64,000 bases of DNA from Eledone cirrhosa. Taxonomy: Eukaryota. The stretch is from assembly GCA_964016885.1 (NCBI GenBank), contig OZ024742.1, forward strand, positions 268,150,001-268,214,000. The letters are read 5' to 3'. Under the pieces are notes generated by a model. It saw only the letters and a list, made by a program, of their open reading frames with translations. It was not told the origin of the DNA and searched no databases. Position numbers and translations under genes: made by a program. This document shows, piece after piece, positions 1,896 through 64,000 of the stretch (the stretch's first letter is position 1; each line of letters starts with the position of its first letter).

Positions 1896-4800
1896 AAAAA
1901 CTAAGTCAGACATTCGAATACTACATTACAATGAAACTTATGCTTATCCATTTTTGGGGCCCTTTCTGCCCGTGTGTTTGTTTGTTTATGTGTGTCCGTA
2001 TACAGCGTGGTGATAATGCCACACAAGGGCCAAGTGGGATGGCGGATCCACAGATGGCTATGTAAACATACATTCGCCAATCCTCGATAAGAGTGTTTAA
2101 ATATCGAACATAAACAGTTCGAATAACGGTGAAATGGAGACTAGAACGTCATGTGACAGACTCTCACCCAACAGGTGCCCCCTGGCTCAGCAGCAGGAAC
2201 CTGACTGTCAACGAAATACTGCTGATGTTGGAGGAAGAAGAAGAAGGAAAGGGGCCAGAACCAACTGGACGAAAGAATTGAATAGAACTGTTATGCAATG
2301 CTACCTGAAAAGTAACCCCAAGGAGAGGGGCTACAGGAGACGGATGCATAACATCTGGAACGAGATTGGTTTATTTAAATTAGATGAACAAAAATTGGCC
2401 GGGCAGGCTCGGGTAATAAGAACTAATGGGTGGATAAGCGAGCTGGAACTGGAGGAACTGAGCAGAGAGAATGGCTTGGAGATGGCGGGTGTAGTATGCC
2501 AGACAAGCGAGCCGGCGGGAAATGAAGGTGAGGAGGTCCTGAGAGCGGAGGAACCACCCGAAGCAGACAATGATCTGAATACTGAGATAAATAATACCTG
2601 GAACAGAGATACGGCCACTGAGGAGATGAATGCTGACGGGCTAGGACAAGATTCGGTTGACATCCTAAATTTAGTGGTAGATGAGTTGAACAATGATAGT
2701 GGGAGACCTATGAACCTAAGATTTGTAGACAGGAAAAAGTTAAAAGAAACAACAGCTAAGGTAAACAAAGTCATCCCATACCTTGAGGCGAGGAGTCTTC
2801 ACCAGTGCAACAATATCCTCAAAGCAACAGCAAATACGGTGAGGAAACTACTTGGTATAAAAGCGAGAGGAAACAACAGACAAGAAAGAGCAGAGCCGTG
2901 GTGGAAGAAGCGACTGAGTGGGCAAATCGGGGAAATGAGAAATGACATAGGAAAGCTTGAGTCACTACTGAATGGGACACTAAAAAACATAGGCACTAAA
3001 AATAGACTGGAAATAAAATACAAAACTAGGAGTAAAAAGCTAAATATTATCATAGAGGAATTGAAGCAACGCATTGTAGCAAAGAGTGCCAAAATCAGGC
3101 GATACGAGAACAGAGTCAGTCAGTATAAACAGAACCGCATGTTCGACAACAACCAGAAGATGCTGTTTGGACAGCTTGAGGGGAAAGAAAGAGGCACCGA
3201 CTTGATCCCTGGGGCGGAACAAGCTAAAACATTCTGGAGAGGAATATGGGAGCAGGATGTTAGACACAATGCCCAGGCAGGGTGGATTGAGACAGTACAG
3301 AGGGAGATCGGTGAGCAGGCACAGCAACAGACTGATTTGAGTATCACAGTTGAAACTCTTAAGGGGCAAGCCAAAAAACTAACCAACTGGAAATCACCAG
3401 GCCCAGATGGTGTGCAGGGGTATTGGATTAAACATTTAACATCCCTCCACCCGAAGCTGACGGCCATGTTCAATGACTGCTTGGTGTCGGGTGAGGTGCC
3501 AGAGTGGTTGACAAAAGGTACCACAGTTCTGATAATGAAAGACCGAATCAAGGGTAATGATGTTACCAACTATAGACCTATCACATGTCTGCCCGTAATG
3601 TGGAAACTGTTGACGAGCATTGTGTCTGAGGAAATCTACCATCACCTCCACACAAACAACTTGTTGCCAGACGAACAGAAAGGATGCCGAAAGAAGTCAC
3701 GTGGTACAAAGGACCAGTTGCTTATTGATAAGATGGTAATGGGGAATTGCAGGAGGAGACACACTGATCTTGCCATGGGATGGATAGACTACAGAAAGGC
3801 ATTTGACATGGTGCCTCATTCCTGGATCACCAAAAGCCTGGAGATCTTCAGGGTGGCAGATAACATCAGACAGTTGCTGGGCAGGAGTATGGGGTCCTGG
3901 GAGACAGAGTTGACATCAACTGGAGTATCCTTGGGAAGCGTGAAGATCAAGAGAGGTATCTTCCAGGGAGATAGCCTGTCCCCTCTGTTGTTTGTCCTTG
4001 CCCTGATGCCCTTGACCATTATGCTGCGAAAAGTGAGAGCAGGATACAAGTTGGGAAGGGGAGAGCTTACCATCAATCACCTCCTCTTCATGGACGATCT
4101 TAAGCTCTTCGGGAAAAGTGAGAAGGAGTTGGATGTGCTTGTTGACACTGTCCGTATTTTCAGCAGTGATATATGTATGCAGTTTGGTATTGGTAAATGT
4201 GGAGTCATTGTGATGAGGAGGGGTAGGTTGAGCAGAAGTAACGGGATCCAGATACCAACAGGTGAGATGATAAAGGAAATTGACTCTGAGGAAGGATACA
4301 AGTATTTGGGCGTTCTGGAGGCTGATGGCATAAAGAACAAAAAAATGAAGGAATTGTTAAGAACTGAATACATTCGGAGAGTAAGGAGCGTATTGAAGTC
4401 ACATCTGAACAGCAGAAATGCCATAAGCGCAGTAAATTCCCGAGCTGTGTCTATTATTAGGTACAGTGCGGGAATTCTGAGATGGAATGTTGCTGAACAA
4501 AAAGAAATGGATAGGAAGACTAGGAAGCTATTGACTATCTACAACATGTTCCACAAGAGGAGTGATGTCGATAGACTCTACCTAAGGAGATCTGAGGGTG
4601 GAAGAGGTCTTATCAGCATAGAGGACTGTGTTCAGATGGAGAAAAACAACCTATACAAATACGTGACCTATAGTAAGGAGCCAATGCTCAGAGCTGTACT
4701 GAAGGAGGGGACAGTAGGCCAGGGGATACCCAAGGAGGAAATAACATCAAGGAGGAAGAGCAGCCTTAAGGGAAAATCCCTTCATAGTACCTTCTTTGAG

Positions 4801-5600
4801 AAAACTGAATTTAGAGATCCACAGACATGGAACTGGTTGAGAAGAGGAGACCTCAAAAAGGCTACAGAAGGAATGCTAATGGCTGCGCAGGAGCAGGCCC
4901 TCAAAACGAAGTGGTTGAAGCACCATATCTACAAGGAGGAGGCTAGCCCACTGTGCAGGATCTGTGGAGAGAGAGAGGAGACTGTGGCTCACATTGTGTC
5001 CGAGTGTAAAGACCTAGCCCAGACCCACTATAAGGGCTGGAGACACGATGTGATGGGTAGGGTGATCCACTGGCACCTGTGCAAAGTAAACAATCTACCA
5101 CATTCTGAGAAATGGTATGAGCATAGGCCAGAGGCGGTGATGGAGAACAGTCAGGTGAAGGTGCTGTGGGATTTTAGGATACAGACGGACAAAAAACTGG
5201 AACACAATAGACCTGACCTGGTGGTTGTGGACAAAGAAAAAAGATCGTGCCTGATTGTGGATGTGGCCTGCCCGTTCGACACGAGAGTGCAAGAGAATGA
5301 GAGGGAGAAAATTAACCGATACCAGGACCTAAAGTGGGAGGTGAAAAGGATTTGGAACTGCCATGAAGTCAAAGTGATCCCGATTGTCATAGGCGCACTG
5401 GGGACTATCTCCAAAGGTTTCCAGGGATGGTTAAAGAAAATCGGCCCCTTCACGCTTTTTGGAACGCTTCAAAAGGCATGCTTGCTTGGAACGGCAAGAA
5501 CCCTCCGATACGTCCTGAATATCTGAGGCTGCAGGTAGTGGCTTGATATTCAATCCAACGGACTTTCCAGTTAACCAACATCAATGACTGAGATTCAAGG
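1896..5600 (+). mobile_element. Full-length, intact R4/Dong-clade element, family A
   Basis: 5' end AAAAACTAAGTCAGACATTCG matches the second full-length copy at 60782. Single long ORF, short 3'UTR ending GATTCAAGG, then (AAT)n at 5601-5653. Confidence 0.95.
2134..5526 (+). CDS. R4/Dong polyprotein: N-terminal R4-type domain, reverse transcriptase, CCHC knuckle, restriction-like (PD-D/ExK) endonuclease, 1130 aa
   Basis: Motifs KSPGPDG, NYRPITCL, WIDYRKAFDMV, GIFQGDSLSPLLF, HLLFMDD, YKYLG, CRICGEREETVAHIVSEC, RHD...RPD...VDVACP...KINRYQDL. No stops. Confidence 0.96.
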   Translation: METRTSCDRLSPNRCPLAQQQEPDCQRNTADVGGRRRRKGARTNWTKELNRTVMQCYLKSNPKERGYRRRMHNIWNEIGLFKLDEQKLAGQARVIRTNGWISELELEELSRENGLEMAGVVCQTSEPAGNEGEEVLRAEEPPEADNDLNTEINNTWNRDTATEEMNADGLGQDSVDILNLVVDELNNDSGRPMNLRFVDRKKLKETTAKVNKVIPYLEARSLHQCNNILKATANTVRKLLGIKARGNNRQERAEPWWKKRLSGQIGEMRNDIGKLESLLNGTLKNIGTKNRLEIKYKTRSKKLNIIIEELKQRIVAKSAKIRRYENRVSQYKQNRMFDNNQKMLFGQLEGKERGTDLIPGAEQAKTFWRGIWEQDVRHNAQAGWIETVQREIGEQAQQQTDLSITVETLKGQAKKLTNWKSPGPDGVQGYWIKHLTSLHPKLTAMFNDCLVSGEVPEWLTKGTTVLIMKDRIKGNDVTNYRPITCLPVMWKLLTSIVSEEIYHHLHTNNLLPDEQKGCRKKSRGTKDQLLIDKMVMGNCRRRHTDLAMGWIDYRKAFDMVPHSWITKSLEIFRVADNIRQLLGRSMGSWETELTSTGVSLGSVKIKRGIFQGDSLSPLLFVLALMPLTIMLRKVRAGYKLGRGELTINHLLFMDDLKLFGKSEKELDVLVDTVRIFSSDICMQFGIGKCGVIVMRRGRLSRSNGIQIPTGEMIKEIDSEEGYKYLGVLEADGIKNKKMKELLRTEYIRRVRSVLKSHLNSRNAISAVNSRAVSIIRYSAGILRWNVAEQKEMDRKTRKLLTIYNMFHKRSDVDRLYLRRSEGGRGLISIEDCVQMEKNNLYKYVTYSKEPMLRAVLKEGTVGQGIPKEEITSRRKSSLKGKSLHSTFFEKTEFRDPQTWNWLRRGDLKKATEGMLMAAQEQALKTKWLKHHIYKEEASPLCRICGEREETVAHIVSECKDLAQTHYKGWRHDVMGRVIHWHLCKVNNLPHSEKWYEHRPEAVMENSQVKVLWDFRIQTDKKLEHNRPDLVVVDKEKRSCLIVDVACPFDTRVQENEREKINRYQDLKWEVKRIWNCHEVKVIPIVIGALGTISKGFQGWLKKIGPFTLFGTLQKACLLGTARTLRYVLNI

Positions 5601-6817: not shown

Positions 6818-6859
<42 letters not shown>

Positions 6860-6860
<1 letters not shown>

Positions 6861-7235
6861 TTTTCTTTATTAACCACAAGGGTTTACATAAAGTAGACAT
6901 TAAGGACAGTACAGGACAATACAGGACGGTACAAATGGGCATTTCTGCGTGTAAAAAAAACATAGGATGAAATAAAATAACAAAGAAAAATTCCCCAATA
7001 GGGGGGAGACTTCCGAGGGACATTTGTGGAGAAAGCCCATTAAAAGACCACAGTGGCCCTGACCACCAGGGCAAGTGCCCTCTTCCAGTTTTCCACCTTT
7101 AATTTACAGACACATACTCAGAGAAGGCCCATTCATTCGGGCCATACTTGCTTCTCTCACCCATCTTTCAAAAACATGCTGGGAAGAGAGCACTTCCCTC
7201 TCTACCCTGATTTTCCTTTTCAAATGAAATTTGAA
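6860..7235 (-). mobile_element. Short 5'-truncated Tx1-clade copy (ORF2 end + 3'UTR)
   Basis: Near-identical to 13309-13685 and 51442-51820; flanked by (AAT)n. Confidence 0.92.
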
Positions 7236-7493
7236 TAATAATAATGATTTCTTTATTAACCACAAGGGTTTACATAAAGTAGACATTAAGGACAGCGCAG
7301 GACAATGCAGGACGGTACAAATGGGCATTTCTGCGTGTAAAAAACAAAAACAGAGGATGTAACAAAAATAACAATGAAAAATTCCCCAATAGGGGGAGAC
7401 TTCGGAGGGACATTTGTGGAGAAAGCCCAGTAAAAAGCCACAATGACCCTGACCACCAAGGCAAGTGCCCTCTCCCAGTTTTCCACCTTTAAT

Positions 7494-10400
7494 TTACAGA
7501 TATATACTCAGAGTAGGCCCATTCACTCGGGCCATTCTTGCTTCTCTCACCCATCTTTCAACAAAATGCTGGGAAGAGAGCACTTCCCTCTCTACTCTGA
7601 TTTTCCTTTTCAAATGAAATTTGAAAAAGTCAATCAGAGCATCACCGAAGGAGTAAGTGCTCGTCTTCAGCCCTTTCAAACGTGTCCACCATACTATCTC
7701 TTTCGCCATGGCCACCAGGCAGATAAAAGCTGCCTGCCCTTCCCGGCTAAAGGAGGAGGGCGGGGCAATCCTCACGATGGACTCAGATGATAGCCGGATC
7801 CGTCCTAAACGCGACAGCAGGTGTTCGACATAAACCCACAAGTCAGCAATTTTCGGACACTGGACGAGTGCGTGCAGGACGGTTTCGTCGCCCTGCGCGC
7901 ATCTCGGACATGCCCGGCTGACGGCACCTCCATGCCTGTAGAGTTTATCCCGAACTGGCAAGTCTCCTCGGTAGCACTGTCAGGCCAGAGATTTCTGGAA
8001 GTTGTCCATAGGCCCTGGCCCGAAAGTTCTTCCGAAGAGATTGGCTAGTTGATTTTCGTCGACGCCTAGAGTTTTCCCAAGTACGTCGTCGCTCTTCCCC
8101 TCCACTAATCCTCTATAGAACGCCGAGGTGGAGTTTACACCGACCACATTGCCCGATTGGTCGAGGGCTGTGAGCGCCTGAAGACATTCCAGTCTCCAGG
8201 CGCTCCCTCTCGGTCTTCGCTTGACCCAGCACTGCAGCTCCGTCAAGGAAACGAGCTGGGGAAATACGCGTCTAGCAAACGGCGACCACACCTGATCACC
8301 GTCGAGGAAGAGGTGGAGATGTCGTAGCCTGAGCGCGTGCCTGCGCATCATCAGCCACGGCATGCCCAGCCCTCCACGTAGCGGGTGTTGACAACAGATG
8401 GACCGCCTGACCATCGGAGCGCGTCCCTTCCACAAAAAGCGAAAGAGCAAACGCTCCAGCGTAGTCAGGCGAGGCTTAGGACAAGGTACGACGGTCAGGC
8501 GGTAGCAGATGACAGACGCGATGTACGCGTTAGCCACCTCCGCTCGACCTTTCAGGGATAGCTTCCTCTCCGCCCATTTTTGGGTGAGAGAAGCCACCCT
8601 GCTCGTCACCTCGTCCCAGTTTTTGTCCGTCTGGAGGGCCGGACCGAACCAGACCCCTAGCAATTTAACCGGTCCGTCCATCCAGCGTCCGACGACGCTG
8701 TTGGACGGCATGGACCTGCCTCTCCAGGTGCCGAGCTGCAGGCCCACTGACTTTTCCTGGTTGATCATTGCTCCTGTCACCGCTTCGTATTCTCTTAGTG
8801 TAGTGCCGATCGCCTCGATGTGTTTGGCGTTCGACACCACTACGATGAGATCGTCCGCATATGCTGACACGGATCTTCCGCATCCTAGTTCGCGCGGGAC
8901 GCCCCTCAATGTCTCCAGTTTGTGCAGTAATGGCTCGAGAGTCAATACGTACAAGAGGGACGAGAGGGGACATCCTTGGCGGACCGAGCGCATGATGTTG
9001 AACGGTTCCGACAGGTGACCGTTCACTCTCACTACAGAGCAGATGTCGCTGTGCATGGCAGCGATCCAGCCTCTGAAGACGGGCCCAAAGCCAGCCGCCC
9101 TCAGGACTGCCGCTAGGTAACGATGGTCGACCCTATCGAAAGCTTTCGACTGATCTAAATTGATCAAGGACCCACCCGTGCCAGGTTCCCTAGCTACCCT
9201 CTCTACGATGTATCGCATGAGGTGGAGGTTGTCGTGGATGGATCTGTCGGGAATGGCGCATGTCTGCGCCTCTCCCACCAGACCACCAACGACAAGCGCC
9301 AACCTCTTTGCTAGCACCTTGGCCAAAATCTTAAACTCTGTGTTTAGCAGAGTTATGGGCCGGAAATTGTCTATGTTATCCCCCTTGTTCGGATCCTTTC
9401 TGAGCAGTGCCACCGCTCCTCGGCTCACAGAACTGGGAATTCTCCCGTTCTGTTGCCAGTTGCAGTAGACGTCCGCCAAGAGGCCTGCGAACAAGTCTGG
9501 CATCTGTACGTAAAGTTCATAGGGCAGACCATCCAAACCAGGCGATTTACCCCTTGTGCAGCCAGTCATTGCCTCCCTTACTTCAGCGACTGTTATCGGC
9601 TTTTCGCAACACTTCGCCTCAGTGGCCGAGAGCCGCGGCACTCCGTCGAGGTAGACACTAAAGTCCATCCCTCGACCCGGCCCACCGCTGCCCCCGAACA
9701 GCTGAGCGAAGTGTCGCTGAAAAGCTTCACACATTTGCCCAGGATCGAGTAGCATTTGCCCGTCGTGGTCCACCAAAGACCGGATCGTGGCTTTGTTGCC
9801 ACGACACGACGCGCCTCCGCCACTCGGGCCCATTGAACGGCTTTCGTCCCCTCGTGTCTGAGAGCACGCACCCTTGCTCTGACAACGCAGCCTTCGTGCT
9901 TTGCATTGAAGAATTGGTCAAGGGCCAATTTCGCCGCAAGCACGTCGGTCGCAATGCCTTTGCTAAGCGCCTCGTCTAATTTTCTAACTAGTTCTCCCTC
10001 TGCTCTATTTTTCTCTATTGCTAAAGCCTTACTAAACCTAATCGATTCTATTCTAATCGCTCTTTTCAGAGCAAACCACCACTTGTTGTTGACGATGGCC
10101 CCCGTCAACGCCCGCTTAACTAGTTCGCTAATCCGGTCTCTGTGGGCCTTGCGCGCTGGTAAGGACGCGTTTAGCTTCCAGTAGCCGGGTCCTCGTCTAT
10201 GAAGCCTATCTAAGTCAAGCACACAGATCACGAATTTGTGGTCCGTGTAGCTGACTATCTTGAATTGTGGACAGCCTATGCTAGACCTATCTATTTCCCT
10301 ACAAAATACTCTATCTAGATATGATCTGGATGACCCTATGCGGTTTGTCCAAGTCCACATTGGCACATTCGGGAAATCCAATCGGTACCTGTCAGACAGT

Positions 10401-10917
10401 TCAAAACGCCTGAGCAGGTTGGTGAGGCTCTTGCACCCTCCACCCCTATCCGCTAATCCCACACAGTCCCAGCGTTCATCTAAGATCCCGTTCCAGTCGC
10501 CCACTAACACTAAAGAGCGGGACGTTCCAAGAAAGTTCTCCAGACGCCGGAAGAAATCAGGCCACCCTGCTCCTGTCGGGGCATAGACGGCCACTAGACT
10601 GAAAGCTTGCCTGTCTCCGCTGGTCACGTCCAGCACCACCAGCTTACCCTCTGGGTCCAGGAAGATGGCCCGTATGGCGAGATCCAAACCTCTCCGAAAA
10701 AGCACAGCAACTCCTCCCCCCGATCCAGGACGGCTGGGAGATGCGTACACATCGTAGCCGCCGAAGATCGGTGCGAAGGCCCGTGCTTCGGAGATTCTGG
10801 TCTCGCTGATGGCCACTACATCTATGTTTAGTGACCTGAGGTCGTTGAGCAGGTGACCCTGCTTCCATGACCACCCCAACCACGCGCATTTATGCTGCCT
10901 ATTCTGAGTGAGGTCAT
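7494..10917 (-). pseudogene. Tx1 ORF2 (APE endonuclease, RT, CCHC), disrupted
   Basis: MTSLRIGSINARG, ISET, AVYAP, VGDWN, YLDRVF, TDHK; QGCPLSSLLY, AYADD; CPRC...H...C. Frameshifts near 10880 and 9810; stop at 7980. Confidence 0.92.
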
Positions 10918-10952
10918 GTTTAAAATAGAGTGGAAAAGATGGGAAAGACCAC

Positions 10953-13055
10953 TTACCGTACTTTTGGTAGAGGAGGGATGGTTTTTACATCCCTTTTCAC
11001 TTGATCGTCTGGTGAAGGGACCGTTGAATCGTCCCTTCGTCTGGTCGTCGGCTCTTCTAAGAGAATGTCTGAATATACTCTTCGATTGATGGTTCCTCAT
11101 AGGTCCCTGAAATCACCAACTGCGTTGGGGAATTTCGTTTTAATGTTTGTGTATTGTTTCTGTGCTATTTTTAGCAGTCTTATGTTAGTTGGCGTTTTGA
11201 TTGGTGCTGGTATTATGTAGTCCTGTTGTGAAATGTCTGTGTGTTCAATTATGTAAGTCATTAGTTTCTTGTTGTGTGTATTTATTGCCGTGCATTTGTT
11301 TTTATGGGGGTGGGGTGTGGTTCTGCTATTTTCTTGTCGTTGTTGCTGGGTGTGTGTGTTTTGTTGTTGTGTTTGCGATGTTGGTGCTTGTGGTTGTGGT
11401 GTTGAAGGTGTTGTTGGCGGTGGGGTTGTCGCCGGTGGTGATGGTGGTGCTAGTGTGGGTGGTGATGGTGTTGGTGGTGTAACTGCTGTGGGTCTCTTTG
11501 CAGTAGACTTAACCCTTTTCTCATTTCTTTCCTCCCTTTTCAGAGGCGACGATGCGCTGCTTCTGCGTTTGTGCCTTCTTACGACCTTTTGCCATCCCTC
11601 TCCCACCTCACACTCCATGTCTGATTCTGTGAGGTCGGGGAGGGGTACCAGCTCCACTCTTTCACTTGTTGTTGTTGGTGATGTTTGCACTGGAGTCTCT
11701 GTTGCAGCTGCATTTGGTATTGCTGTTGTTGTTGTTAATATTTCCACTGCTGCTGCTGTTTTTGATTTCCGTGGCGTGGGTATGGGTGCCACGGACCTAT
11801 CGTTCCTGGTTGCCGCTTGTCCTGTTGCTGGTAGCCGTGGAGTCTGATTCGGAAGGAGGGGGGTTTTCTCCTTTCTCAGGGTCTTCTCGTTGCAGAAGGC
11901 CCTGAGGTGAGTCTTCGATCAACAGCGAAAGCATTTCGGGCGTTTGCCCTCAACACTTATGGGCAGTTGAGTGCCGTTATCGAAGTCTATCACATCCGGG
12001 ATAGCTTCGATGCACTCCTGGTTGGTTTGGATTAGCATCTCAATGGAGGTGCCGACCCAATCTTCTCTTACTTTTTTCTGTACTTGCAGTACAGTTGTTT
12101 TGTCCTCGATTCCGACGAGGACAGACGCGGCCAGCCAAGAAGGGGCCATTCCGGGGGGGACGTGGGTCAGTTTGACCCTCACAATTTTTTGCCCGCAGTA
12201 GGAGGGCACCAACACCATTTCCTCGCTCCTTAGTGTCACTACTGATTGGGCCTTTGCCTCCTGGGGTGTGGCAAAAAGTACGTCTACGGTGGCATATTTT
12301 TTGCCTCGGGTGATGTGCGTTTTCCGCTCCCACACAGACCCCAAGGCTTTTTGTATCTGAGCCTCTGTGGCTCTTTCCACCCTACGGGATTTTGTACTTA
12401 CTGTACGGTACGTGACCGTACAGTGCTGTTGGGTTTCGAAAAATTTTTCCGCTGCCTTGCAGATTGCTCGGTGTCCATTCTTTGTCACCATCTTCTTCGC
12501 TTCCTCTAATTCCTCATTTGTTATGAGGATTGTTTCCAAGTTTTTCGCAATGCCTGCAAATGAGATTGGTTTTTCTTTGCTGCTATTGTTGTTGTTGTCG
12601 TCAGAGCTGCTGGTACTTTTGTTGTTGCTGCAGGTACTACGACTACTGCCTCCGCCGCTGTTGCTGTGGTTGTTGTTGGTGTTGCTGCTGCTAATGCTGT
12701 TGTTGTTTATGCTGCTGGTGATGCTGTTGCGGCTGCTACTGTTGTTTTCATTGTCACTGTTGCTGTTGTTATTACGGCTGCTACTGCTATTATTCCTGAC
12801 GTCAGACGAATGAACTGGGTTTTCGTATTTCCCGCACACCTGTTTCGTCGCTGTCGTCGTCGTCGTGGAGAAACCTTGCACGCTTTGCACGAGACTTTTC
12901 TTTTCTTTCGTCACTTGCGAAAGAGAAGGGAGGGAGAGAGACACATTTAAAGAAGGGAGGGAGAGAGACAATCTTCTCTCTGCTGTAGTGATGATTGAGG
13001 AAGAAGAAGACGGAAAGAGTGGGAGTGACGTATGAAATTTCTTTTTCGTAGCCAT
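10953..13055 (-). pseudogene. Tx1 ORF1 alpha (Asn/Ser-rich N-terminus, RRM-like core, CCHC knuckle, Pro/Thr-rich tail), 701 codons with two in-frame TGA
   Basis: One reading frame through CFRC*SKTHLRAFC (TGA 11919-11921) and DFRDL*GTINRR (TGA 11097-11099) to TAA at 10953. Confidence 0.85.
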
Positions 13056-13267
13056 GTTGTTTTTTGTTTAAAATGAATATTGGGTACAAAACCCCCAATA
13101 ACTGGTTATTTAACCCCGAAGGGCCAAATAACGGACAGAAAGACCCCTCTCACGTGAGGAGGGTGTCTTTATCAACAATTTGGTTCAAGTTTTAAACAAT
13201 TTACAATTGTTTTAACGGTTAAAAATTAATATACCTTACAGAGCCGAGCCTCCGTCAACCATGGCAT

Positions 13268-13309
<42 letters not shown>

Positions 13310-13551
13310 TTTTCTTTATTAACCACAAGGGTTCACATAAAGTAGACATTAAGGACAGTACAGGACAATACAGGACTGTACAAATGGGCATTTCTGCGTG
13401 TAAAAAAACAGAGGTTGAAATAAAATAACAAAGAAAAATTCCCCAATAGGGGGGAGACTTCCAAGGGACATTTGTGGAGAAAGCCCATTAAAAGACCACA
13501 GTGGCCCTGACCACCAGGGCAAGTGCCCTCTCCCAGTTTTCCACCTTTAAT

Positions 13552-17004: not shown

Positions 17005-18852
17005 TTACCTTACTTCTCGTAGGGGAAGGACGGTTTTTCCATCCTTTTCACTGCTTGTGGCCTCCTCAGGAAGGATGTCCTTATAAATCCTCCTGGAGAG
17101 TGCTTGTCGGAAGTCTCCGATGTCTTTGGGGATGTAGTGAATAATTGCTTGTTGTTCAAATTTAATGCTGTGTAGTGTGTATCGTTTTGGTTGTTTTGTT
17201 TTGTTTGCGTTTGTTGTGGGTTTGTTTCTGTTTCGCATTTTGGTGACTTTTGTGGTGTAGGTGATGGTGGTGTTGGAGTTAATGATGGTGATGGTGTTGG
17301 TGTTTGGGTTGATGGGGTTGGTGATGCTGGTGTGGATGGTGGCATATCTGTCCTAACTTTTTTGTTTGTTAGTTTATTTGTTTCCCTCTGTATTTTGTTT
17401 TTGGAGGGGGAAGGAAGAGAATTTTTTTCTTTTTTGGTTTCCCACTCCTCGTCGTCACAATCTGTCTCCAGTTGTGATAGGCGGGGGAGTGGAAAATCCT
17501 CCACAGCCGTTAGTTTTGGTTGTGGCGTGGTGGATGGTGTAGGCGCTGGCGCTAGTTCTGAAGCGTTGGGTGGCGGTGGTGTTGATTTTGCTGGTGGTGG
17601 TAGTGGTGTTGGTTTTGCTACTGTTGCTGGGGTTGTTGCTGTTATAGTTGCTTCTGTTGTTGCTGCTACAGTTGTTGCTGCCATCTCTGCTACTGGTGGT
17701 GTTGATGGTTGTGTCACTGGGGTGGGTAGGAGAGGTGGCCTCAACCTTTTAGCCTGAGGGCAGAAAGCCCTTAGGTGGGTTCCTTCACCACAAACGACAC
17801 ACCTAGGTCTTCTGCCCTCGACAATTACCGTGAGGTGGCTGCCGTCAGTGAGGTCTATTACCTCTGGGATCTCCTCAATTCTTTTTTGGTCCGCTTGGAT
17901 CAGGAGCTCCATCCCAGATCCGGACCAGTTTTCCTGCTTTTCTTTTGCTACTGCTATTATTTTCGTGTTGGCTTCGATGCCGGCGAGGACGGCCGCTATT
18001 AGCCAGGGAATTTCGATGACCGGTGGAACGTGGGTCACCCTGATCTTTACGAGTCTCTGGCCACAATAGCTTGGTACGAGTGTGAAGTCGTCACTTTTTA
18101 ATGGGGCCATGGAGTGTTCTCTAGCCTCCTCTGGTGTTTCAAAGAACACGTCCACGGTTCCATACTTTTGCCCACGTCTGATGTGGGTTTTTCTTGCCCA
18201 CACATGTCCCAAAGCTTTTTGGATTTGGGACTCGGATGCCCGTTCCACTCAGCGCGATTTTACATTTATTGTTCTATACGACACGGTGCATAGGCGCCGA
18301 TGCTCCATTTTATTAGGTGGTGGGGGGTGGGTGAGGCTGACCCTGTACCCATCTTTCTTTACCATTTGTTTGGCATTTTCTAAATCTTCCTGAGTTACCG
18401 TACAAGCTTCGAATTGTTTTGCTACTCTGGCGAAACTGAGGGTCGGTTTTATAATGTCATTGTTGTTGTTGTTGCTATCGTTAATATTAATTTTAGTTTC
18501 AGTTGTGGTGGTGTTGACGTCAGTCGTCTTTGGTGGGGAAGAGTCCATTTTGCTTGATTTCATTTCGACGTCACGAGTTAATTTATTTTTTTCTTCTTTT
18601 TTTTCTATTGTCGCGGTGGTGGTGGTGGTGGTGGTGGTCGCGGTGGTGGTGGTGGTGGAGGCTTTAACACCTGCAGTCATTGGTAATGGCGGGAAATGAA
18701 TGTCTGCCTGAGACAAATTTAAAATATTGCTACTGCTTATATTTTTTTTTTGTGTTGGCAAACGTAGTAACATTTACAATGGTGGTGTCGGTGTGAGGTG
18801 TTAATTTGTGAGGAAGGCTTTCAGCTGCTTGTTGCAGAGGTGAATTAGCCAT
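17005..18852 (-). pseudogene. Tx1 ORF1 beta (Thr/Asn-rich N-terminus, CVVCGEGTHLRAFC knuckle, Pro/Thr-rich tail), disrupted
   Basis: TGA at 18249 where the 57 kb copy has CGA; frameshifts in homopolymer runs; deletion near 17132 relative to the copy at 55250-55370. Confidence 0.85.
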
Positions 18853-19085
18853 TTTTTTTCAAAGAAATATTTTGATAATAATAAAAGTTAAAATTTTGGG
18901 CACAAGGCCTCAATCTTTTTAGGTGTCCTTTTCGGAAAACAATGTATGTGTGCTTATAAACAGTTAACAATAAAATTTTCCATAAATGGCAATTTTTAAA
19001 CAAACGGAAATAACAAACCTTTGCGGAGCTCACGATAATACGATTTCCTACGTAGGTCGCCAATAATAATAATAATAATAATAAT

Positions 19086-20305
19086 ATTAATCGTGGAATT
19101 TTTCAGGGTGACTCTTTATCACCGCTTTTATTCTGCATCGCGCTTATACCATTAAGTAAAATGCTCAATGAAACAAAACATGGATATAAAGTCTATGACA
19201 AAACCATTAATCACTTGTTCTACATGGATGACCTGAAACTATTTGCAAAAAATGATGAACAATTGCAAGGGCTATTATCCACTGTGGAGCAGTTCAGTGA
19301 TGACATTAAAATGGAGTTTGGACTGGATAAATGCGCCAAAGCAACGTTCACCAGAGGAAAGATGCTGAAAAGTTCAGACATTAATCTTGATCGAGGGAAT
19401 GTGATAAGAGAAATTGATCAAGAGGAAACTTACAAATATCTAGGTGTTTGTGAAGGAGACGGAATCAAACACTCGACAATGAGGGAAAGGATAAGGAAGG
19501 AATGTTACCGCAGAGTAAGAGCAATCTTCAGAACGGAATTGAATGCAAGGAATAGGATCGATGCCATAAACACGCTTGCCATACCAGTAGTAACCTACAG
19601 TTACAATGTCATCAACTGGTCAAGCACAGAGATCCGTAGGCTCGATACAAAAATTCGAAAATTCTTAACCATGCACAGAATGCATCACCCTAAGGCAGAT
19701 ACAGATAGAATATATCTCCCTAGGAAAGAAGGAGGACGTGGGTTAATCCAGTTAGACATTGCGTTGAAAACTGCAACAATTGGATTATCTACATATCTAA
19801 GGGAATCACATGATTGGATGATCAAACTCGTTTTGATGCACGAAAGCATCAAAAGATCATACTCCATTACAAAAGATGCACAAAGATACAGTAATGGACT
19901 GCACATTTCAGAAGTCCCATTTACTGCTGAAATGGAAAACACAGAAAAAGCAAAGCAGGTAAAAGTAACTGCAAAGAAATAACTGCTACAGAAACTGGCT
20001 AAGAAATGGCAAGAAAAGCCTCTGCATGAAAAATACCCAGAACGAGCTAACAATCTTGATGTTGACAAAACTTTAACCCATTAGTGGTTGGCATCCTCTG
20101 GACTGAAATCGGAGACTGAAGGACTGATTATATCAGCACAAGATCAGTGTCTGCCAACAAAAAATTACCAAGCCAACATAATAAAAAACGGATGCAGCCC
20201 ATTATGCCGTGTATGCAAAAAACAACCAGAGACCATTGATCATATAATTTCAATGTGCAGTCCTATAGCTCCAACCGAATACCTAAACAGGTATGACAGA
20301 GCTGC
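19086..20305 (+). mobile_element. Dong-B internal fragment (RT to CCHC), degenerate
   Basis: GIFQGDSLSPLLF, HLFYMDD, CRVCKKQPETIDHIISMC; stops at 19980 and 20082. Confidence 0.93.
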
Positions 20306-21050: not shown

Positions 21051-24000
21051 TAACAAAACAATAACAAAGAAAAATTCCAAAATAGGGGGGAGACTTCCGA
21101 GGGACATTCGTGGAGAAAGCCCATTAAAACCACAGTTAATCTGACCACCAGGGCAAGTACTCTCTCCAAGTTTTTCACCTTCAATTTACAGACACATACT
21201 CAGAGTATGCCCATTCACTCGGGCCTTTCTTGCCTCTCTCACCCATCTTTCAACAAAATGCTGGGAAGAGAGCACTTCCCTCCCCATCCTGATTTTCCTT
21301 TTCAAATGAAATTTGAAAAAGGTAATCAGGGCATCACCGAAGAGGGAAGTGCTCGTCTTCAGCCCTTTTAAACGTGTCCACCATACTATCTCTTTCGCCA
21401 TGGCCCCCAGACAGATAAAAACTGCCTGCCCTTCCCGGCTAAAGGAAAAGAGCGGGGCAATCCTCACGATGGACTCAGCTGATAGCTGGATCCGTCCTAC
21501 ACGCGACAGCAGGTGTTCGACATAAACCCACAAGTTAGCAATGCTCGGACACTGGACGAGTGCGTGTAGGACGGTTTCGTCGCTCTGTAGAGTTTATCCT
21601 GATCTGGCGAAGCTCCTGGTAGCACTGCTAGGCCAGAGGTTTCTGGAACTGTCCACAGGCCCCGGGACGAAAGTTGTTACCAAGAGATTGGCTAGTTGAT
21701 TTTTGTCGACGACTAGAGTTTCCCCAAGTAAGTCGTCGCTCTTCCCCTCCACTAATCCTCTATAGAATGCGGCTGGAGTTTCCACGGATCACATTGCCCG
21801 ACTGGTCGAGGGCTGTGATTGCCTGAAGACATACCAGTCACCAAGCGCTCCCTCTCGGTTTTCGCTTGACCCATGACTGCAGCACCGCCAAGGAGACGAG
21901 CTGGGGAAGACGGGTCAAGCAAACGGCGACCACAGCTGATCACCGTCGAGGAAGAGGTAGAGGTGTCGTAGCCTGAGCGCGTGTCTGCACATCATTAGCC
22001 ATGGCATGCCCAGTTCTCCAGGCAACGGGTGTTGGCAGCAGATGGACCGCCTGACCATCGGAGCGCGTCCCTTCCAAAAAAAAGCGAAAGAGTAAACGAT
22101 CCACTGCAGTCAGGCGAGGCTTAGGACAAAGCACGACGGTCAGGCGGTAGTAGATGACGGACGCGATGTACGCGTTAGCCACATCCGCTCCACCTTTCAG
22201 GGATAGCTTCCTCTCCGCCCATTTCTGGGTGATAGAAGTCACCCTGCTCGTTACTTCGTCCCAGTTTTTGCCCGTCTGGAGGTCCGGAACGAACCAGACC
22301 CCTAGCAATGTAACCGGTCCGTCCGTCCAGCGCCCGACGACGCTGTTGGACCTATGGACCTGCCTCATCAGGTGCCGAGCTGCAGGCGCACTGACTCTTC
22401 CTGGTTGAACATTGCTCCTGTCATCGCTTCGTATTCTCTTAGTGTAGTGCCGGTCGCCTCAATGTGTTGTCGTTCGACACCACTACGGTGACATCGTCCC
22501 CACATGCTGACACGGATCTTCCGCATCCTAGTTCGCGCGGGACGCCCCTCAACGTCTCCAGTTTGTGCAGTAATGGCTCGAGAGTCAATACGTACAAGAG
22601 GGACCAGAGGGGACATCCTTGGCAGACCGAATCGTGGCTTTGTTGCCACGACAAGCCTCCGCCACTCGGGCCCATTGAACGGCTTCGTCCCCTCTTGTCT
22701 GAGAGCACGCACTCTAGCTCTGAGAACTCAGCCTTCGTGCTTTGCATTGAAGAATTGGTCAAGAGCCAATTTCGCATCAAGTACGTCGGTCGCGATGCCT
22801 TTGCTAAGCGCCTCGTCTAATTTTCTAACTAGTTCTCCCTCCGCTCTATTTTTCTCTTTTGCTAAAGCCTTACTAAAAACCTAATGGACTCTATTCTAAT
22901 CGCTCTTTTCAGAGCAAACCAACACTTGTTGACAATGGCTCCCACCAACGCCCGCTTAACTTGTTCGCTAATCCGGTCTCTGTAGGCCTTGTGCACTGGT
23001 AAGGACGCGTTAGCTTCCAGTAGCTGGATCCTTGTCTATGAATCCTATCTATGTCAACCACACAGATCACGAATTTGTGGTCCGTGTAGCTGACTATCTT
23101 TAATTGTGGACAACCTAAGCTAGACCTATCTATTTCCCTACAAAATGAGCTATCTAGATATGATCAGGATGACCCGATGGGGTTTGTTCAAGTCCACATT
23201 GGCACTTTCGGGAAATCCAATCGGTACCTGTCAGACAGTTCAAAACGCCTGAGCAGGTTGGTGAGGTTCTTGCACCATCCTCCCCTATCCGCTAATCCCA
23301 CACAGTCCCAGCGTGCATCTACGATCCTGTTCCAGTCGCCCACTAACACTAAAGAGCGGGACGTTCCAAGAAAGGTCTCCAGACGCTGGAAGAAATCAGG
23401 CCGTCCTGATGCTGTCGGGGCATAGACGGCCACTAGCCTGAAAGCTTGCCCGTCTCCGCTGGTCACGTACAACACCACCAACTTACCTTCGGAGTCCAGG
23501 AAGATGGCCCGTATGGCGAGATCCAAACCTCTCCGAAAAACACAGCAACTCCACCCCCGATCCCGGACGGCTGGGAGATGCGTTCACATCGTAGCCGCCG
23601 AAGATCGGTGCGAAGGCCCGTGCTTCGGAGGATCTGGTCTCGCTGATGTCCACTACATCTATGTTTAGTGACCTGGGGTCGTTGAGCAGGTGGCCCTGCT
23701 TCCATGACGACCCCAAGCCATGCGCATTTATGCTGCCTATTCTGAGTGAGGTCATGTTGAAATGGAGTGGAAAAGATGGGAAAGACCACTTACCTTACTT
23801 CTCGTAGAGGAAGTACGGTTTCTCCATCCTTTTCACTGCTAGTGGCCTCCTCAGGAAGAATGTCCTTATAAATGCTCCTGGAGTGTGCTTGTCAGAAGTC
23901 TCCGATGTCTTTGGGGAATTTTTGTTTTAGTGTCATGTACGTTTTCTGTGTGATGCGAGTGATTTGTATGTGTGGAGGTGGTGTGAACTTTTGGGTTGTT

Positions 24001-25497: not shown

Positions 25498-25545
<48 letters not shown>

Positions 25546-25547
<2 letters not shown>

Positions 25548-28500
25548 TTTCTTTATTGGCCACAAGGGCTGAAATCATGAAAAACGGCACAGGACGGTAC
25601 AGGACGGTGCGATGTGGGTTTTGTTCGTGTAAAGATTTTTATTATTTATATAAGAAAAGAAAAAGAAAAAGACATATAAACATATATATATTATTAAACA
25701 ATAAAAATGAAAATTGAAACAATGAAAAATTCTCCAATAGAGGCGAAACCTCCGAGGGTTACTCGTGGCTAAAAACACACAAAAGACCACCAGGGCAAGG
25801 ACCCTCTCGCAATTTTTCCATTTCTCATACTACGGGTGTATATTCAGAGCGGTGTCGTTCACTCGGACCATTCTCGCTACATTAACCCAGTTTTCAAGAA
25901 ACTTGCTAGAAGGCAGCACTTGCTTTCCACCCTCATTTTCCTTTACAAGTGAACCTTGAAAAAGTTAATTAACGATTCCCAAAGCGGAAAGTATCTGTCT
26001 TTAACCCTTTAAACCGTGTCCACCACACAATCTCTTTCGCCATGCCCACCAGGAAGATGAAAACCGCCTGCCATTCCTCCTCGAAGGAAGACGCCGAGAC
26101 CATCTGCACAATGGACTCAGTCTATAACCGGATCAGTCCTACACGCGACAGCCACTGTTCGACATAGCTCCACAAGTCAGCAATGCTCGGACACTGAACG
26201 AGTGCGTGCACGACTGTTTCGTCGCTCTGTGCGAATATCGGACAGGATCGGCTGACGGCAATTCCGTGCCTGTAGAGCTTATCTTGAACCGGCAACGCTC
26301 CCCGGTAGCACTGCTAGGCTAGGGATTTCTGGAAGTTATCCATAGGCCCTGGGCTGAAAGTTCTCCGGAAGAGAGCAAACAGCTGATCTTCTTCGACCCC
26401 CAGGATCTCTCCGAGAACGTCGTCGCTCTTCCCCTCCACTAGGCCTCTATAGAACTCCGAGGTGGATGTTCCACCTGTACTGGTGCCCAGCTGGTGAGCG
26501 CCTGGAGACATTCCAGTTTCCAAGCGCTATCCCTCGGTCTTTTCCTGACCCAGGACTGCAGCTCCGTCAAGGAGACGAGCTGTGGGAAAGCGTGCCTGGC
26601 GAACGGCGACCACACCTGGTCACCGTCAAGGAAGCACCACAGATGTCGCAGCCTCAGTGCATGTTTGCGCATTATCAGCCATGATGCTGAACGGCTGCGA
26701 CAGGTGACCGCTCACCCTTACAACCGAGCAGATATCGCTGTACATCGCAGCCAACCAACCCGGTGAAGACGGGACCGAAACCGCCTGCCTCGGGGACCGC
26801 CGCCAGGTACCGATGGTCGACCCTATCGCATGCTTTGGATTGTCACCCACTAACACTAGAGAGCGCGACGTTCCAAGAAATGTCTCTAGAGGTCTAAAGA
26901 AATCTGGCTGTCCTGTCCCTGTCGGGGCATAGACGGCTATTAGCCTGAAAGCGTAGCCTTCGGTGCCGGTCACGTCCAGTACCGCCGACTTACCTACTGG
27001 GTCTAGGAAGATGGCCCGTATGGCGAGATCCTAGCTTCTCCGAAAAAGGACGGCAACCCCTCCACCCGATCCTGGACGGATGGGAGATGCGTATACATTG
27101 TAGCCGCCGATGATCAGTGCGAAGGCTCGTGCTGCGGAGATTCTGGTCTCGCTGATGGCCACCACATCTATGTTTAGTGACCCGAGGTCGTTGAGCAGGT
27201 GACCCTGCTTCCAAGATGACCCCAGGCCACGTGCATTTATACTGCCTATTCTGAGTACGGCCATGTTGGATGAGAAACAGGGCAACTGAGAAAGGATCAC
27301 TTACCTTGATCGTGTGGTGAAGGGACAGTAGAACCGTCGCTTTGGCTGGTCATGGGTGTTTCCAGGAAGATGTCAGTGTATATCCTCTTGGTAACCGACC
27401 CTCTGAAGTCTTCAACTGCGTTGGGGAATTTTTGTTTTAAATTGTGTACTGTTCTATTGAGATTTCAATGATGCTTATGTTTGTCGGGAGAGTTCTTGGT
27501 GTTGGTGGGGTGTAGTAGTTTTTTTTCTGAGATGTCTGTGTGCTGCTTTATATATTGTATGAGTTTATTTTTGCCATGTTTATGGCTGTGTACTTTTTGG
27601 GGCGGGGTGATTTTGTTGCTGTTTGGTGTGTGAGTTTTGTTTTGTTTGCGCTGTTGGTGTTTTTGCTGATGCTGCTGGTGGTGGTTGCTGTTGGCGGTGG
27701 TGCTTATGGTGGTGATGGTGATGGTGGTGGTGTTGCTGCAAGTTTCCTTGCTGCCTTTACCCCTCTTAGTGTGCCTTCGCTTTTGGAAGGCGAAGCTAAG
27801 GGTTATTTTGTTTTTTTGTTTGTTGTGGCAGACCGTTTGCCACTTCAATCCCGCCTCAAACTCCATGTCGGATTACGTGGTGTATAGGAGGGGTATGTGC
27901 TCGACGGCTGTTGGTGGTGGTAGTGGATCTCTCTTCGGCAATTTTGTTGCCTGTGTAGCTATTGGTGTTGCCGCCACTGATGCTGATGCTTTAGTTGTCC
28001 GTGGCCTTGTTACGGGTGCCACGGACGTTGCCCTCCTACGCACCGTGGAAGGGGATTCTGCGTTTGTTGCCTGCCCTGCTCTTGGTAGCAGCGGAACAGG
28101 TATTGGATGGAGAGGGGCCTTCTTCGCTTTCTTCTGCGGGCAAAAGGCCCTGAGGTGACCCTTTGACTCACAGAGATAACATTTTGGCCGTCTTCCTTCT
28201 ACGCTTATAGGGAGTTGGAGTCCTTCCTCGACATCTATGATATCGGGGATAGCGTCGATACATGGTCAGTTTGTATAAGCATTTCCATGCCTATACCTGA
28301 CCAGTTCTCTCTCCCTATTTTCTCTACTTTCGGCATGGTCGTCCTGACCTCGATTCCAGCAAGGTCAAACGCAGCCTGCCGAGGTATGGGCATGTCGGGT
28401 GGGACTTGTGTCACTTTGACCCTCACAATTGTCTGCCAGCAGCAGGAGGGCACCAAGACTATCTCCTCACTCTTTAGAGTTTCCAACGTGTGAGACTTCG

Positions 28501-29534
28501 CTTCTTGGAGGGCGCCAAATGTACGTCTACTGTGTCGTATTTTCTGCCTCGGGTGATGTGGGTTTTGCGTGCCCAGATGCACACCAAGTCCTTCTGGATT
28601 TGAGCCTCCGTGGTTCTCTCCACCCGATGTGAGATTTTGATTACGGTGCGGTAAGTCGTCGTCCGTAGCTGATAGTTCTTGAAAAAATCGGGTGGAAGTT
28701 TGAGGGAGAGTCTATTGGCGCTTCTTGTCACCATGGCCCTTGCGACTGCCATATCCTCCTCTGTGACTAACACTGTTTCGATATTTCTGGCAACACCTGC
28801 AAAAGAAATGGTCCCTTTTCAGCAGCACCACTATTGTTGCCGCTACCGGTCCTGCTTGTGGTGCTGGGATCGCTGTTACAGGTATCGATGTCATTGTTGA
28901 TGTTTTCGTTGGTACTGTTGTTGTTGTTGTTTTCGTTGATACTGTTGCTGTTGTTACTGTTATTGTGGCTGTTGTTATTATTGTTGTTTTTGTTGATACT
29001 GTTCCTACTATTATTGTTGTTGTGGCTGTTGTTATTGTCATTGTTATTGTCGTTCTCGCCCTTACAACTGTTATTTTTGTTATTGCTTTTGTTAATGATG
29101 GTGTTGTTGTTGGTGTTATTGTTGGTATTGTTTGTGTTAGAAATATTTGGTGATTTTAAATCTGTAACAATATCGTTAAAAATGATAGTGTTCCTCTTTT
29201 CCTTCGTAATATTTTCTTTTAAAATTACCTTCGCTGGAACGCTGTCTTGCTGATATGTTGACAAAATCTCCCTCTCTCTGTGTTGTCTGACAGCGCTCTC
29301 TCGCTTTCTTGTGTTATCAATGTTGAAAGACATTTTTTCCAAATAATATTTTACACAATACGACACCCCGTAAAGGGGTGCCGTATTATTTACGAGTGAA
29401 CCCCTCTATTAGGTGGGTCACTTCTTCTGAACTTTTATCAAGTTTGAAACTTGAATAACAAGTTTAGAACGGGTGAAAACGAGGTGAACTGTTGAAAAAA
29501 AACTGGAGGCGATAAGAAGCGTGACTTCCCCTTC
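25546..29534 (-). mobile_element. Divergent Tx1-clade element, ORF1 type gamma, most of ORF2 deleted
   Basis: ORF2 start MAVLRIGSINARGLG (ATG 27264); distinct 3'UTR ending AATAAAGAAATC; ORF1 remnants 27297-29333 with poly-Asn N-terminus; deletions near 26680, 26760 and 26840; (AAT)n on both sides. Confidence 0.88.
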
Positions 29535-29555: not shown

Positions 29556-30136
29556 GAGAGGTATATTCCAGGGAGATAGTTTGTACCCTCTGCTGTTTGT
29601 CCTTCCTCTGATACCCCTGACCGTTATATTGCGAAAGTGAGAGCAGGATACAAGTTGGGAAAAGGAGAGCTTACCATCAACCACATCCTTTTCATGGACG
29701 ATCTTAAACTCTTTGGAAAGAGTGAGAAGGCGTTGGATGTACTTGTTGACACTGTCCGTATTTTCAGCAATGACATATGTATGGAATTTGGTATTAATAA
29801 GTATGGAGTCCTAGTGACGAAGAGGGTTACATTGAGCAGAGCAACGGAATCCAGGTACCAGGGCTTAAAGTGGGAGTTAAAAAAGGATTTGGAACTGCCA
29901 TGAAGTCAAGGTCGTCCCGATTGTCTTAGGCGCACTAGGTACTCTCTGAAAAAGTTTCTAAAGATAGTTAAAGAATATTAGTCCAGCCCCGCTCTTTGGA
30001 ACACTTCAAAAGGCATGCTTGCTGGGAACAGCAAGAACCCTCCGATACGTCCTGAATATCTGAGGCTGCAGGCAGCGGCTTGATATTCATTTCAACGAAC
30101 TTTCCAGTTAAATAACATCAATGACTGAGACTCAAA
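29556..30136 (+). mobile_element. Older Dong-A subfamily fragment with about 1.07 kb internal deletion
   Basis: RT (INHILFMDDLKLF) joined near 29852 to the RLE end (RYQGLKWE); followed by (AAT)n. Confidence 0.9.
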
Positions 30137-30140
30137 GAAC

Positions 30141-30191
<51 letters not shown>

Positions 30192-30194
<3 letters not shown>

Positions 30195-31115
30195 GGAGCC
30201 AATGCTCAGAACTGTACTGAAGGAGGGGACAATAGGCCAGGGGATGCCCAAGGAGGAAATAACATCAAGGAAAAAGAGCAGCCTTCAGGGAAAATCCCTT
30301 CATAGTACCTTCTTTGAGAAAACTGAATTTAGAGATCCACAGACATGGAACTGGTTGAGAAGAGGAGACCTCAAAAAGGCTACAGAAGGAATGTTAATGG
30401 CTGCGCAGGAGCAGGCCCTCAAAACGAAGTGGTTGAAACACCATATTTAAAAGGAGGAGGCTAGCCCACTGCAGGATCTGTGGAGAGAGAGAGGAGACTG
30501 TGGCTCATATTGTATCCGAGTGTAGACACCTAGCCCAGACCCACTATAAGGGCTGGAGACATGATGTGATGGGCAGGGTGATCCACTGGCACCTGTGCAA
30601 AGTAAACAATTTACCACATTCTGAGAAATGGTATGAGCATAAACCAGAGGCGGTGATGGAGAACGATCAGGTGAAGGTGGTGTGGGATTTTAGGAGACAG
30701 ACGGACAAGAAACTGGAACACAATAGACCTGACCTGGTGGTTGTGGACAAAGAAAAAAGATGGTGTCTGATTGTGGATGTGGCCTGCCCATTCAACACGA
30801 GAGTGCAAGAGAAGGAGAAGGAGAAAATTAACCGATACCAGGACTTAAAGTGGGAGGTAAAAAGGATTTGGAACTGCCATGAAGTCAAAGTGAACCCGAT
30901 TGTCATAGGCGCACTGGGGACTATCTCCAAAAGTTTCCAGGGATGGTTAAATAAAATCGGCCCCTTCACGCCTTTTGAAACGCTTCAAAAGGCATGCTTT
31001 CTGGGAACAGTAAGAACCCTCCGATACGTCCTGAATATCTGAGGCTGCAGGTAGTGGCTTGATATTCATTCCAACGGACTTTCCAGTTAACTAACATCAA
31101 TGACTGAGATTAAAG

Positions 31116-31116
<1 letters not shown>
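30192..31116 (+). mobile_element. 5'-truncated Dong-A copy (CCHC + RLE + 3'UTR)
   Basis: ORFs 30121-30450 and 30500-31042 match the intact copy; (AAT)n on both sides. Confidence 0.94.
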
Positions 31117-31185
<69 letters not shown>

Positions 31186-32978: not shown

Positions 32979-33002
32979 AATATTAATAATAATAATAATA
33001 AT

Positions 33003-60300: not shown

Positions 60301-60750
60301 GCAAATAGACCTGATATAATATTGAAGGAGTTTCAAAGGAGGGTATGCCTGCTAATTGATATATCTGTTCCAATAGACAAGAATGTATCTATAAAAACAT
60401 TTGAAAAATTGAGCAAGTATAAGGACCTGGAGATAGAAATTGGAAAAATGTGGAAATTGAGAACTAAAACAATACCAGTGGTTGTAGGCGCTCTGGGAAT
60501 GATACCTAAGGGGTCTAACGACTACTTATCGCAAATCCCAGGAAACCCGCGTATAGGAGAAATACAAAAGATAGTACTAATGGGAACTGCCCATATACTA
60601 AGGAAGATCCTGTCAATATAAGTACATCACAAGTCTAAACACTAAGGATGCATGTGTGAATATGTATGTTCTTTCTTGAACATGGCGGACCTTGAGGTCA
60701 CTGGTTGTGACTTGGTGATAACTCGTATGAACATAAAGCAAGATAAATGC
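57383..60750 (+). mobile_element. Near full-length Dong-B element (RT, CCHC, RLE), disrupted, probably slightly 5'-truncated
   Basis: ORF pieces 57530-58315, 58337-59602, 59615-59926 and 59857-60621 tile an R4-type protein; (AAT)n on both sides. Confidence 0.93.
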
Positions 60751-60751
60751 A

Positions 60752-60781
<30 letters not shown>

Positions 60782-60783
<2 letters not shown>

Positions 60784-63700: not shown

Positions 63701-64000
63701 ATATTACCTTCTTTGAGAAAACTGAATTTAGAGATCCACTGACATGGAACTGGTTGAGAAGAGGAGACCTTAAAAAGGCTACAGAAGGAATGTTAATGGC
63801 TGCGCAGGAGCAGGCCCTCAAAACGAAGTGGTTAAAACACCATATTTACAAGGAGGAGGCTAGCCTACTGTGCAGGATCTGTGGAGAAAGAGAGGAGACT
63901 ATGGCTCACATTGTATCCGAGTGTAAACACCTAGCCCAGACCCACTATAAGGGCTGGAGACGTGATGTGATGGGCAGGGTGATCCACCGGCACCTGTGTA
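60782..64000 (+). mobile_element. Dong-A element with complete 5' end, disrupted, running off the window
   Basis: Collinear with 1896-5080; frameshift near 61685; stops at 62170, 63356 and 63578; preceded by (AAT)n at 60752-60781. Confidence 0.95.

Follow-up and report, generated by a model that had tools for sequence, protein, structure and literature searches.

LINE families often acquire new 5′ ends and ORF1s. The break that founds such a family is rarely mapped because the parents are extinct.

Several described systems come close to the case presented here, and the account of each is that of the available text of the cited report. In the mouse, the recombinant L1 families Tf and Gf are new active families that combine a 5′ part or ORF1 with the ORF2 of a different family, and their parents were active simultaneously (PMC3600994). 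Human L1 SpIREs are retrotransposed copies in which the join fits a splice donor and an acceptor (PMC5860796). In human mRNA/LINE-1 chimeras, the 5′ partner is in sense orientation and terminates at a splice donor, in some cases with an acceptor in the LINE; 6 of 17 end at donors, and cis or trans splicing has been proposed (bioRxiv 10.1101/2025.02.02.635956). Lineages of plant RTE LINEs have been rejuvenated by new 5′ ends (bioRxiv 10.1101/2022.11.04.512097). The LINE family described here, alpha, is like all of these in the respects named. With regards to anatomy, Kibi and Koshi of the Tx1 clade (PMC4494074) and the L1-Tx1 elements of Octopus vulgaris (PMC13282606) have two ORFs, an apurinic endonuclease and a reverse transcriptase, and insert into simple repeats, as do the elements studied here, whereas the target of the latter is an A/T trinucleotide repeat. 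Neither chimeras nor splice signals are mentioned in the available text on Kibi, Koshi and the Octopus vulgaris elements.

The window, a stretch of 64,000 nucleotides of the 3.0-Gb Eledone cirrhosa genome, carries on its minus strand a head-to-tail array of non-LTR retrotransposons. Their ORF2 consists of an N-terminal apurinic endonuclease, a reverse transcriptase and a C-terminal zinc finger (Pfam PF03372, PF00078 and PF13966), the arrangement of the L1/Tx1 group, and its best solved relative is human L1 ORF2p (E 2e-51). ORF1 is ~700 residues long and has a putative CCHC knuckle, recognized by eye, with no Pfam match above cut-off. Trinucleotide runs flank the window copies and many other loci at both ends, by informal and uncounted inspection, as in Tx1-like elements with a repeat target. 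From this anatomy, we call the elements Tx1-type. The features of the window are collected in Table 1. The alpha copy in the window has frameshifts in both ORFs; elsewhere in the genome, several alpha copies have long open ORF1 and ORF2.

Table 1. Positions of the elements, junction parts and splice-site motifs within the window
Feature	Position	Strand	Remarks
alpha element, full length	7234..13269	minus	5′ end at 13269; polyadenylation signal at 7257; trinucleotide tail
alpha, delta-derived arm: 5′ UTR and ORF1 (ATG at 13055) up to the delta donor position	11000..13269	minus	
Bases common to both parents (AG), break within	11000..11001	minus	delta's last exon bases before the donor; AG of beta's CAG
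alpha, beta-derived ORF1 tail, 43 nt	10957..10999	minus	beta 42 nt plus one G (run at 10993-10991)
alpha, retained beta-derived 5′ splice-site consensus	10951..10956	minus	contains the ORF1 stop, 10955-10953
alpha, pyrimidine-rich spacer from donor motif to ORF2 start	10918..10950	minus	
alpha, beta-derived ORF2	7494..10917	minus	Pfam; 91-99% to beta
beta1: CAG 17053-17051, 42-nt unit, donor 17008	17008..17053	minus	young relative of the right-arm parent
beta2: same unit as in beta1	23793..23838	minus	older type than beta1; nearer the right-arm parent
gamma: ORF1 end and donor (GT at 27304)	27299..27345	minus	delta's cousin, not the parent

Two further features of the window lie outside the junction. 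Short 5′-truncated 3′ fragments are stacked behind full-length copies (window 6820-7233 and L239:6420-6720), which points to repeated insertion into the trinucleotide tails of earlier copies. On the plus strand (2101-5526, 19056-20305, 29556-33002 and 57398-64000) there is a second retroelement family with a single ORF and no Pfam endonuclease match, arranged in tandem runs of its own that are interleaved with the Tx1-type arrays. R2 proteins are its best-scoring relatives of solved structure (E 5e-30), so it is probably a LINE with a restriction-like endonuclease.

The first-pass annotation described the alpha copy as a chimera with a join at 11000/10999 on the minus strand, its left part ending like gamma at 27305, the last base before a donor whose GT starts at 27304, and its right part beginning like beta1 at 17050, directly after a CAG at 17053-17051. 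All of these positions were recovered. The alpha junction is real and family-wide. The 140 nt around it are identical in 30 of 30 best genome matches, chosen as best, and an exact 19-mer spanning the join has 2,383 genome matches, compared with none for a control. Contigs from DNA runs of two study codes (X5; X2-X4, one sample) break at the same base, so the join is not an assembly artefact.

The position of the break is also as the annotation placed it, to within the two bases (AG) common to both parents. It coincides exactly with the 5′ splice-site consensus of a fourth family, delta, and lies directly behind the CAG in beta. The removed segment starts with GT at the donor and ends in AG, within the two-base ambiguity of the break. 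In alpha, delta's last 41-nt unit is followed by the homologous 42-nt unit of beta, which places the join out of register by one unit of 41-42 nt. Among the matches listed, 98 of 100 older copies have T as the first base after the join, which is taken as ancestral; a G at this position was rejected as the ancestral base on the same count.

Comparison of majority columns, and of single copies in 150-nt windows, reveals that alpha is a derived ORF1/ORF2 chimera and not the ancestral arrangement. A chimera with a beta right arm had been proposed, and this part of the proposal stands, but the family proposed as donor of ORF1, gamma, has to be replaced by delta. The latter was found by searching with the left arm of alpha followed by any base other than T, which gave 80 places, made up of 64 delta copies and 16 point variants of alpha. 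Delta possesses its own donor, spacer and ORF2. To the left of the join, old alpha copies are 87-98% identical to delta and 51-72% to beta (single copies, 150-nt windows), whereas gamma left of its donor is only 49-77% identical to alpha in windows of the same size. Judged by these identities, gamma is a cousin of delta, the real ORF1 parent.

To the right of the join, the relationship is reversed, with old alpha 91-99% identical to beta versus 74-89% to delta (150-nt windows). A search with the right arm gave 353 matches; the 100 listed comprise 99 beta copies and one alpha, and AG precedes the common arm in 95 of these 99 old-beta rows. The oldest alpha class, defined by 51 exact matches to a 46-mer and represented by 30 loci, differs from delta in 18 of 1411 majority columns of the left arm and from old beta in 5 of 1403 columns of the right arm, where the four listed stem from one extra G. 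By this comparison, the right-arm parent is an old sub-lineage of beta. The two arms have different closest relatives and the switch between them is sharp, as in a recombinant LINE. The survival of both parents, each nearly identical to its arm, allows the break to be placed to within two bases. Alpha outnumbers its ORF1 parent ~37-fold (2,383 versus 64).

The motif at which alpha breaks is conserved throughout the clade. A pattern consisting of the donor, a pyrimidine spacer and the ORF2 start has 5,728 genome matches against 16 for its control. The donor consensus at the ORF1 stop is kept in six spacer types, the spacer ranges from 38 to 46 nt, and the context of the ORF2 start is fixed. Delta, gamma and a further family have the stop in phase 1, whereas it is in phase 2 in three families, beta, alpha and one more. 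Since the donor is invariant over six spacer types and two codon phases, it has probably been kept as an RNA signal and not for coding. As a sequence motif, the left end of the break is a full 5′ splice-site consensus. The doubled 41-43 nt unit is confined to alpha among the families of the six spacer types. A second donor-like motif occurs ~312 nt after the donor, in the endonuclease region of beta, gamma and delta, where it may be fixed by coding.

Alpha contains one extra G eight bases past the join that is missing from the beta parent, and this base affects the reading frame. The ORF1 stop sits inside the donor motif in both parents, but its phase differs, being 1 in delta and 2 in beta. 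Following an exact delta-beta join without the G, ORF1 would stop five bases before the stop of beta. With the G, alpha ORF1 reads 14 codons in the beta frame and stops within the retained donor, such that the beta-derived 43-nt tail extends delta's ORF1 by those 14 codons. Alpha copies without the G exist (five clear copies among 26 matches, plus L424); three of these six belong to the oldest type, and the haplotype of L424 is basal on both sides. All 24 betas found with a basal marker lack it as well. The G is present in three of the four most delta-like alpha copies, and was also gained in five betas. The G-less oldest alphas and G-less basal-marker betas tentatively suggest that the exact join came first and the G was inserted later.

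We somewhat favor a single RNA-level event as the origin of the join, in which the conserved splice donor of delta was cut. This estimate combines two judgements, that the donor was used at all, which is fairly probable, and that use of the donor, once granted, led to the join, which is slightly more probable again. The delta donor would have been joined to a weak cryptic acceptor in beta RNA. This could have happened where a delta-beta tandem was transcribed by read-through, in trans, or through a jump of reverse transcriptase onto the 5′ exon once cut. With an intact ORF2 retained in cis, the product would have been able to retrotranspose. Insertion of a single G, simultaneous with the join or shortly afterwards, would have restored an ORF1 stop inside the retained donor, and the G-bearing form would then have spread to ~2,400 copies. 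The broader statement, that a new autonomous LINE family owes its origin to the spliceosome, which would have joined the ORF1-end donor common to the clade to the RNA of a neighboring family upstream of ORF2, has in our estimation an even chance of being correct. Same-strand arrangements of the kind required by read-through exist, as 6 of 20 delta loci have a downstream beta 5′ end or junction. The single sequencing run presumed to be RNA yielded no sequence across the junctions.

Nearly as plausible is an event at two bases of microhomology that involved no splicing and fell on the donor by chance. It could have been a switch of reverse transcriptase from a beta RNA template to a delta one, the insertion of a 5′-truncated beta cDNA into a delta copy, or a DNA deletion within a delta-beta tandem, and selection may have helped the surviving product to lie at the donor by favoring copies in which ORF1 was complete and ORF2 intact. 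For mosaic L1 families, the available text of PMC3600994 gives strand switching and RNA/DNA heteroduplex as the accepted models. The clade's own deletions fit such an event. A survey of ~1.2 Mb of aligned sequence, without de-duplication, from 339 loci matching the elements contained 127 internal deletions, or 120 after removal of 7 double counts, corresponding to ~1 per 10 kb aligned. The overlap at the 120 deletions is mostly 1-4 nt with a mode of 2 nt (39 of 120), the length found at the alpha join, and 13 of 120 exceed 1 kb. Deletions with GT-AG ends show no excess, with 1 observed and 1.36 expected on the basis of the 127. Two copies, L198 and L200, have long deletions with 2-3 nt of overlap that start at the donor position but have no AG at the other end. 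Families also exchange sequence frequently, and one array (L231; G000:C1:198010200-198020199) joins pieces of delta, old alpha and old beta internally and out of register.

The cost of this explanation is that the break must have coincided by chance with a motif kept unchanged throughout the clade. We modeled every out-of-register delta-beta join, weighted by the overlap lengths of the clade's own deletions, within windows that represent an assumption on which products remain functional. For five choices of window, the probability of a cut at the donor behind an AG was 0.017, 0.010, 0.034, 0.076 and 0.007, that is 0.7-7.6% overall, 1-3% for central windows and up to 7.6% for the tightest. Moreover, where homology is available, families swap in register; other exchanges between families are in register and the alpha join is not.

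The acceptor weighs on the side of microhomology because it is poor. Only 8 of the 20 preceding positions are pyrimidines, so that a pyrimidine tract is missing, and within the 5′ part of beta it ranks 73rd of 132 AGs and 27th of 52 YAGs. A better CAG is found 42 nt upstream of it. This upstream CAG is not retained in other families, and the candidate of a conserved micro-exon was rejected on that account. A mini-intron of 52-54 nt fusing ORF1 to ORF2 was likewise discarded; it is in frame, in beta and alpha, only at the first CAG, and no retrocopy of it was found. A strong-looking acceptor, with a T-rich tract and a CAG, occurs in the 3′ UTRs of alpha and beta (window 13430-13460 and equivalents), with the AG absent in delta and gamma.

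Alpha goes back to a single event with one founder, and the recurrence that marks spliced retrocopies is not seen. Among 4,292 alpha/beta copies with an exact prefix, none has a canonical splice to an acceptor in the element and seven are rearranged at the donor. The same survey contains no beta-to-beta repeat of the 42-nt unit, though its product would be in frame and such tandems are common. No second join from the donor was found among 630 gamma/delta copies, and ORF1-only retrocopies are absent from both surveys. In all, ~4,900 copies yielded no other spliced retrocopy, where a copy is visible if its 19-21 nt prefix is unaltered and C is absent at +14 (alpha/beta) or +16 (gamma/delta), and a join if its second and third bases do not both equal those of the donor. 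Four loci considered as second events (L341, L390, L391 and L535) were rejected, being explained by deletion, point changes and a 3-nt insertion. At L536 (G000:C5:103262765-103262925), an ORF1 end of alpha/beta type runs into unrelated sequence 2-3 bases into the donor. The absence of further spliced copies is only mild evidence against splicing, because most splices within an element would destroy ORF2 in cis. The cis preference of L1 is well established.

The annotation also raised the donor as a possible route for ORF1 swapping in general, with breaks at the donor in other swapped subfamilies. This is not borne out. Gamma and delta form a second ORF1-swap pair, but they have ORF2 in common only from ~390 nt past the donor, and their break is in register within the endonuclease region. 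Gamma (window 25503-29534) and delta (loci L111-L140) differ at 50 majority positions over the initial 389 nt past the donor and at none between 390 and 771 nt, with 93-99% identity onward. Several single gamma/delta copies are mosaics that switch type at various other points. Since gamma and delta break away from it, the donor does not serve ORF1 swaps in general; the in-register break and the switch points of the mosaics indicate that in-register exchange is the common route and alpha the exception.

A parental delta-beta tandem was found neither at L239 nor upstream of the four betas that have both basal markers (of the 24 with a basal marker), where there is no delta. L239 contains a delta, a short 3′ fragment and an extra-G beta in succession, and was rejected as the parental locus as its delta shares 1 of 13 diagnostic states; its beta, without the two basal markers, was rejected as parent. 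A metagenome scan detected no relatives.

A two-step origin is very unlikely. It would consist of a template switch at a 5-nt match after the delta donor, followed by a 5-nt slip that removed this first donor. The match is visible between delta just past the donor and beta at the join, but the first chimera would carry delta's natural stop, and this intermediate is absent among the 80 exact-prefix copies and the 30 of 98 loci read. One of the loci read, the alpha copy L413, is locally rearranged and falls into a later class. Still less credible, and already refuted, is an ancestral or internally duplicated alpha from which the other families lost a segment: its two 41-43 nt units are indeed homologous, but each arm is near-identical to a different living family while the other family reaches only 51-72% (left) or 74-89% (right), and the doubled unit is missing from all other families of the six spacer types.

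If made by splicing at the delta donor, the alpha join would represent a fourth mechanism beside the three considered for mosaic L1 families. In the available text on the mouse recombinants, breaks fall inside aligned regions and are explained by three non-splicing models, whereas the alpha join is out of register and on a splice-site consensus; it is the gamma/delta pair that belongs to the ordinary mouse kind (PMC3600994). The switching of 5′ ends in plant RTE LINEs is ascribed to template switching, mRNA fusion and truncated insertion, and splicing is not mentioned in the available text (bioRxiv 10.1101/2022.11.04.512097). In the literature covered, mostly open-access papers, we found no precedent for a successful LINE family that arose through a splice between two families. 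Should microhomology have made the join instead, alpha would still be a well-resolved case of a chimera overtaking its parent.

The systems in which splicing is invoked differ from alpha in partner and in outcome. In mRNA/LINE-1 chimeras, the partner is a host exon and the products are individual insertions, whereas alpha acquired the promoter and ORF1 of another LINE and became a large family (bioRxiv 10.1101/2025.02.02.635956). SpIREs arise by splicing within one element, are dead on arrival and are called evolutionary dead ends in the available text (PMC5860796); alpha joins two families, numbers 2,383 copies and exceeds its ORF1 parent ~37-fold. If its join was indeed spliced, LINE copies of this kind would not be dead ends only, splicing would be a source of successful new lineages, and alpha would be a fossil record of the use of this donor.
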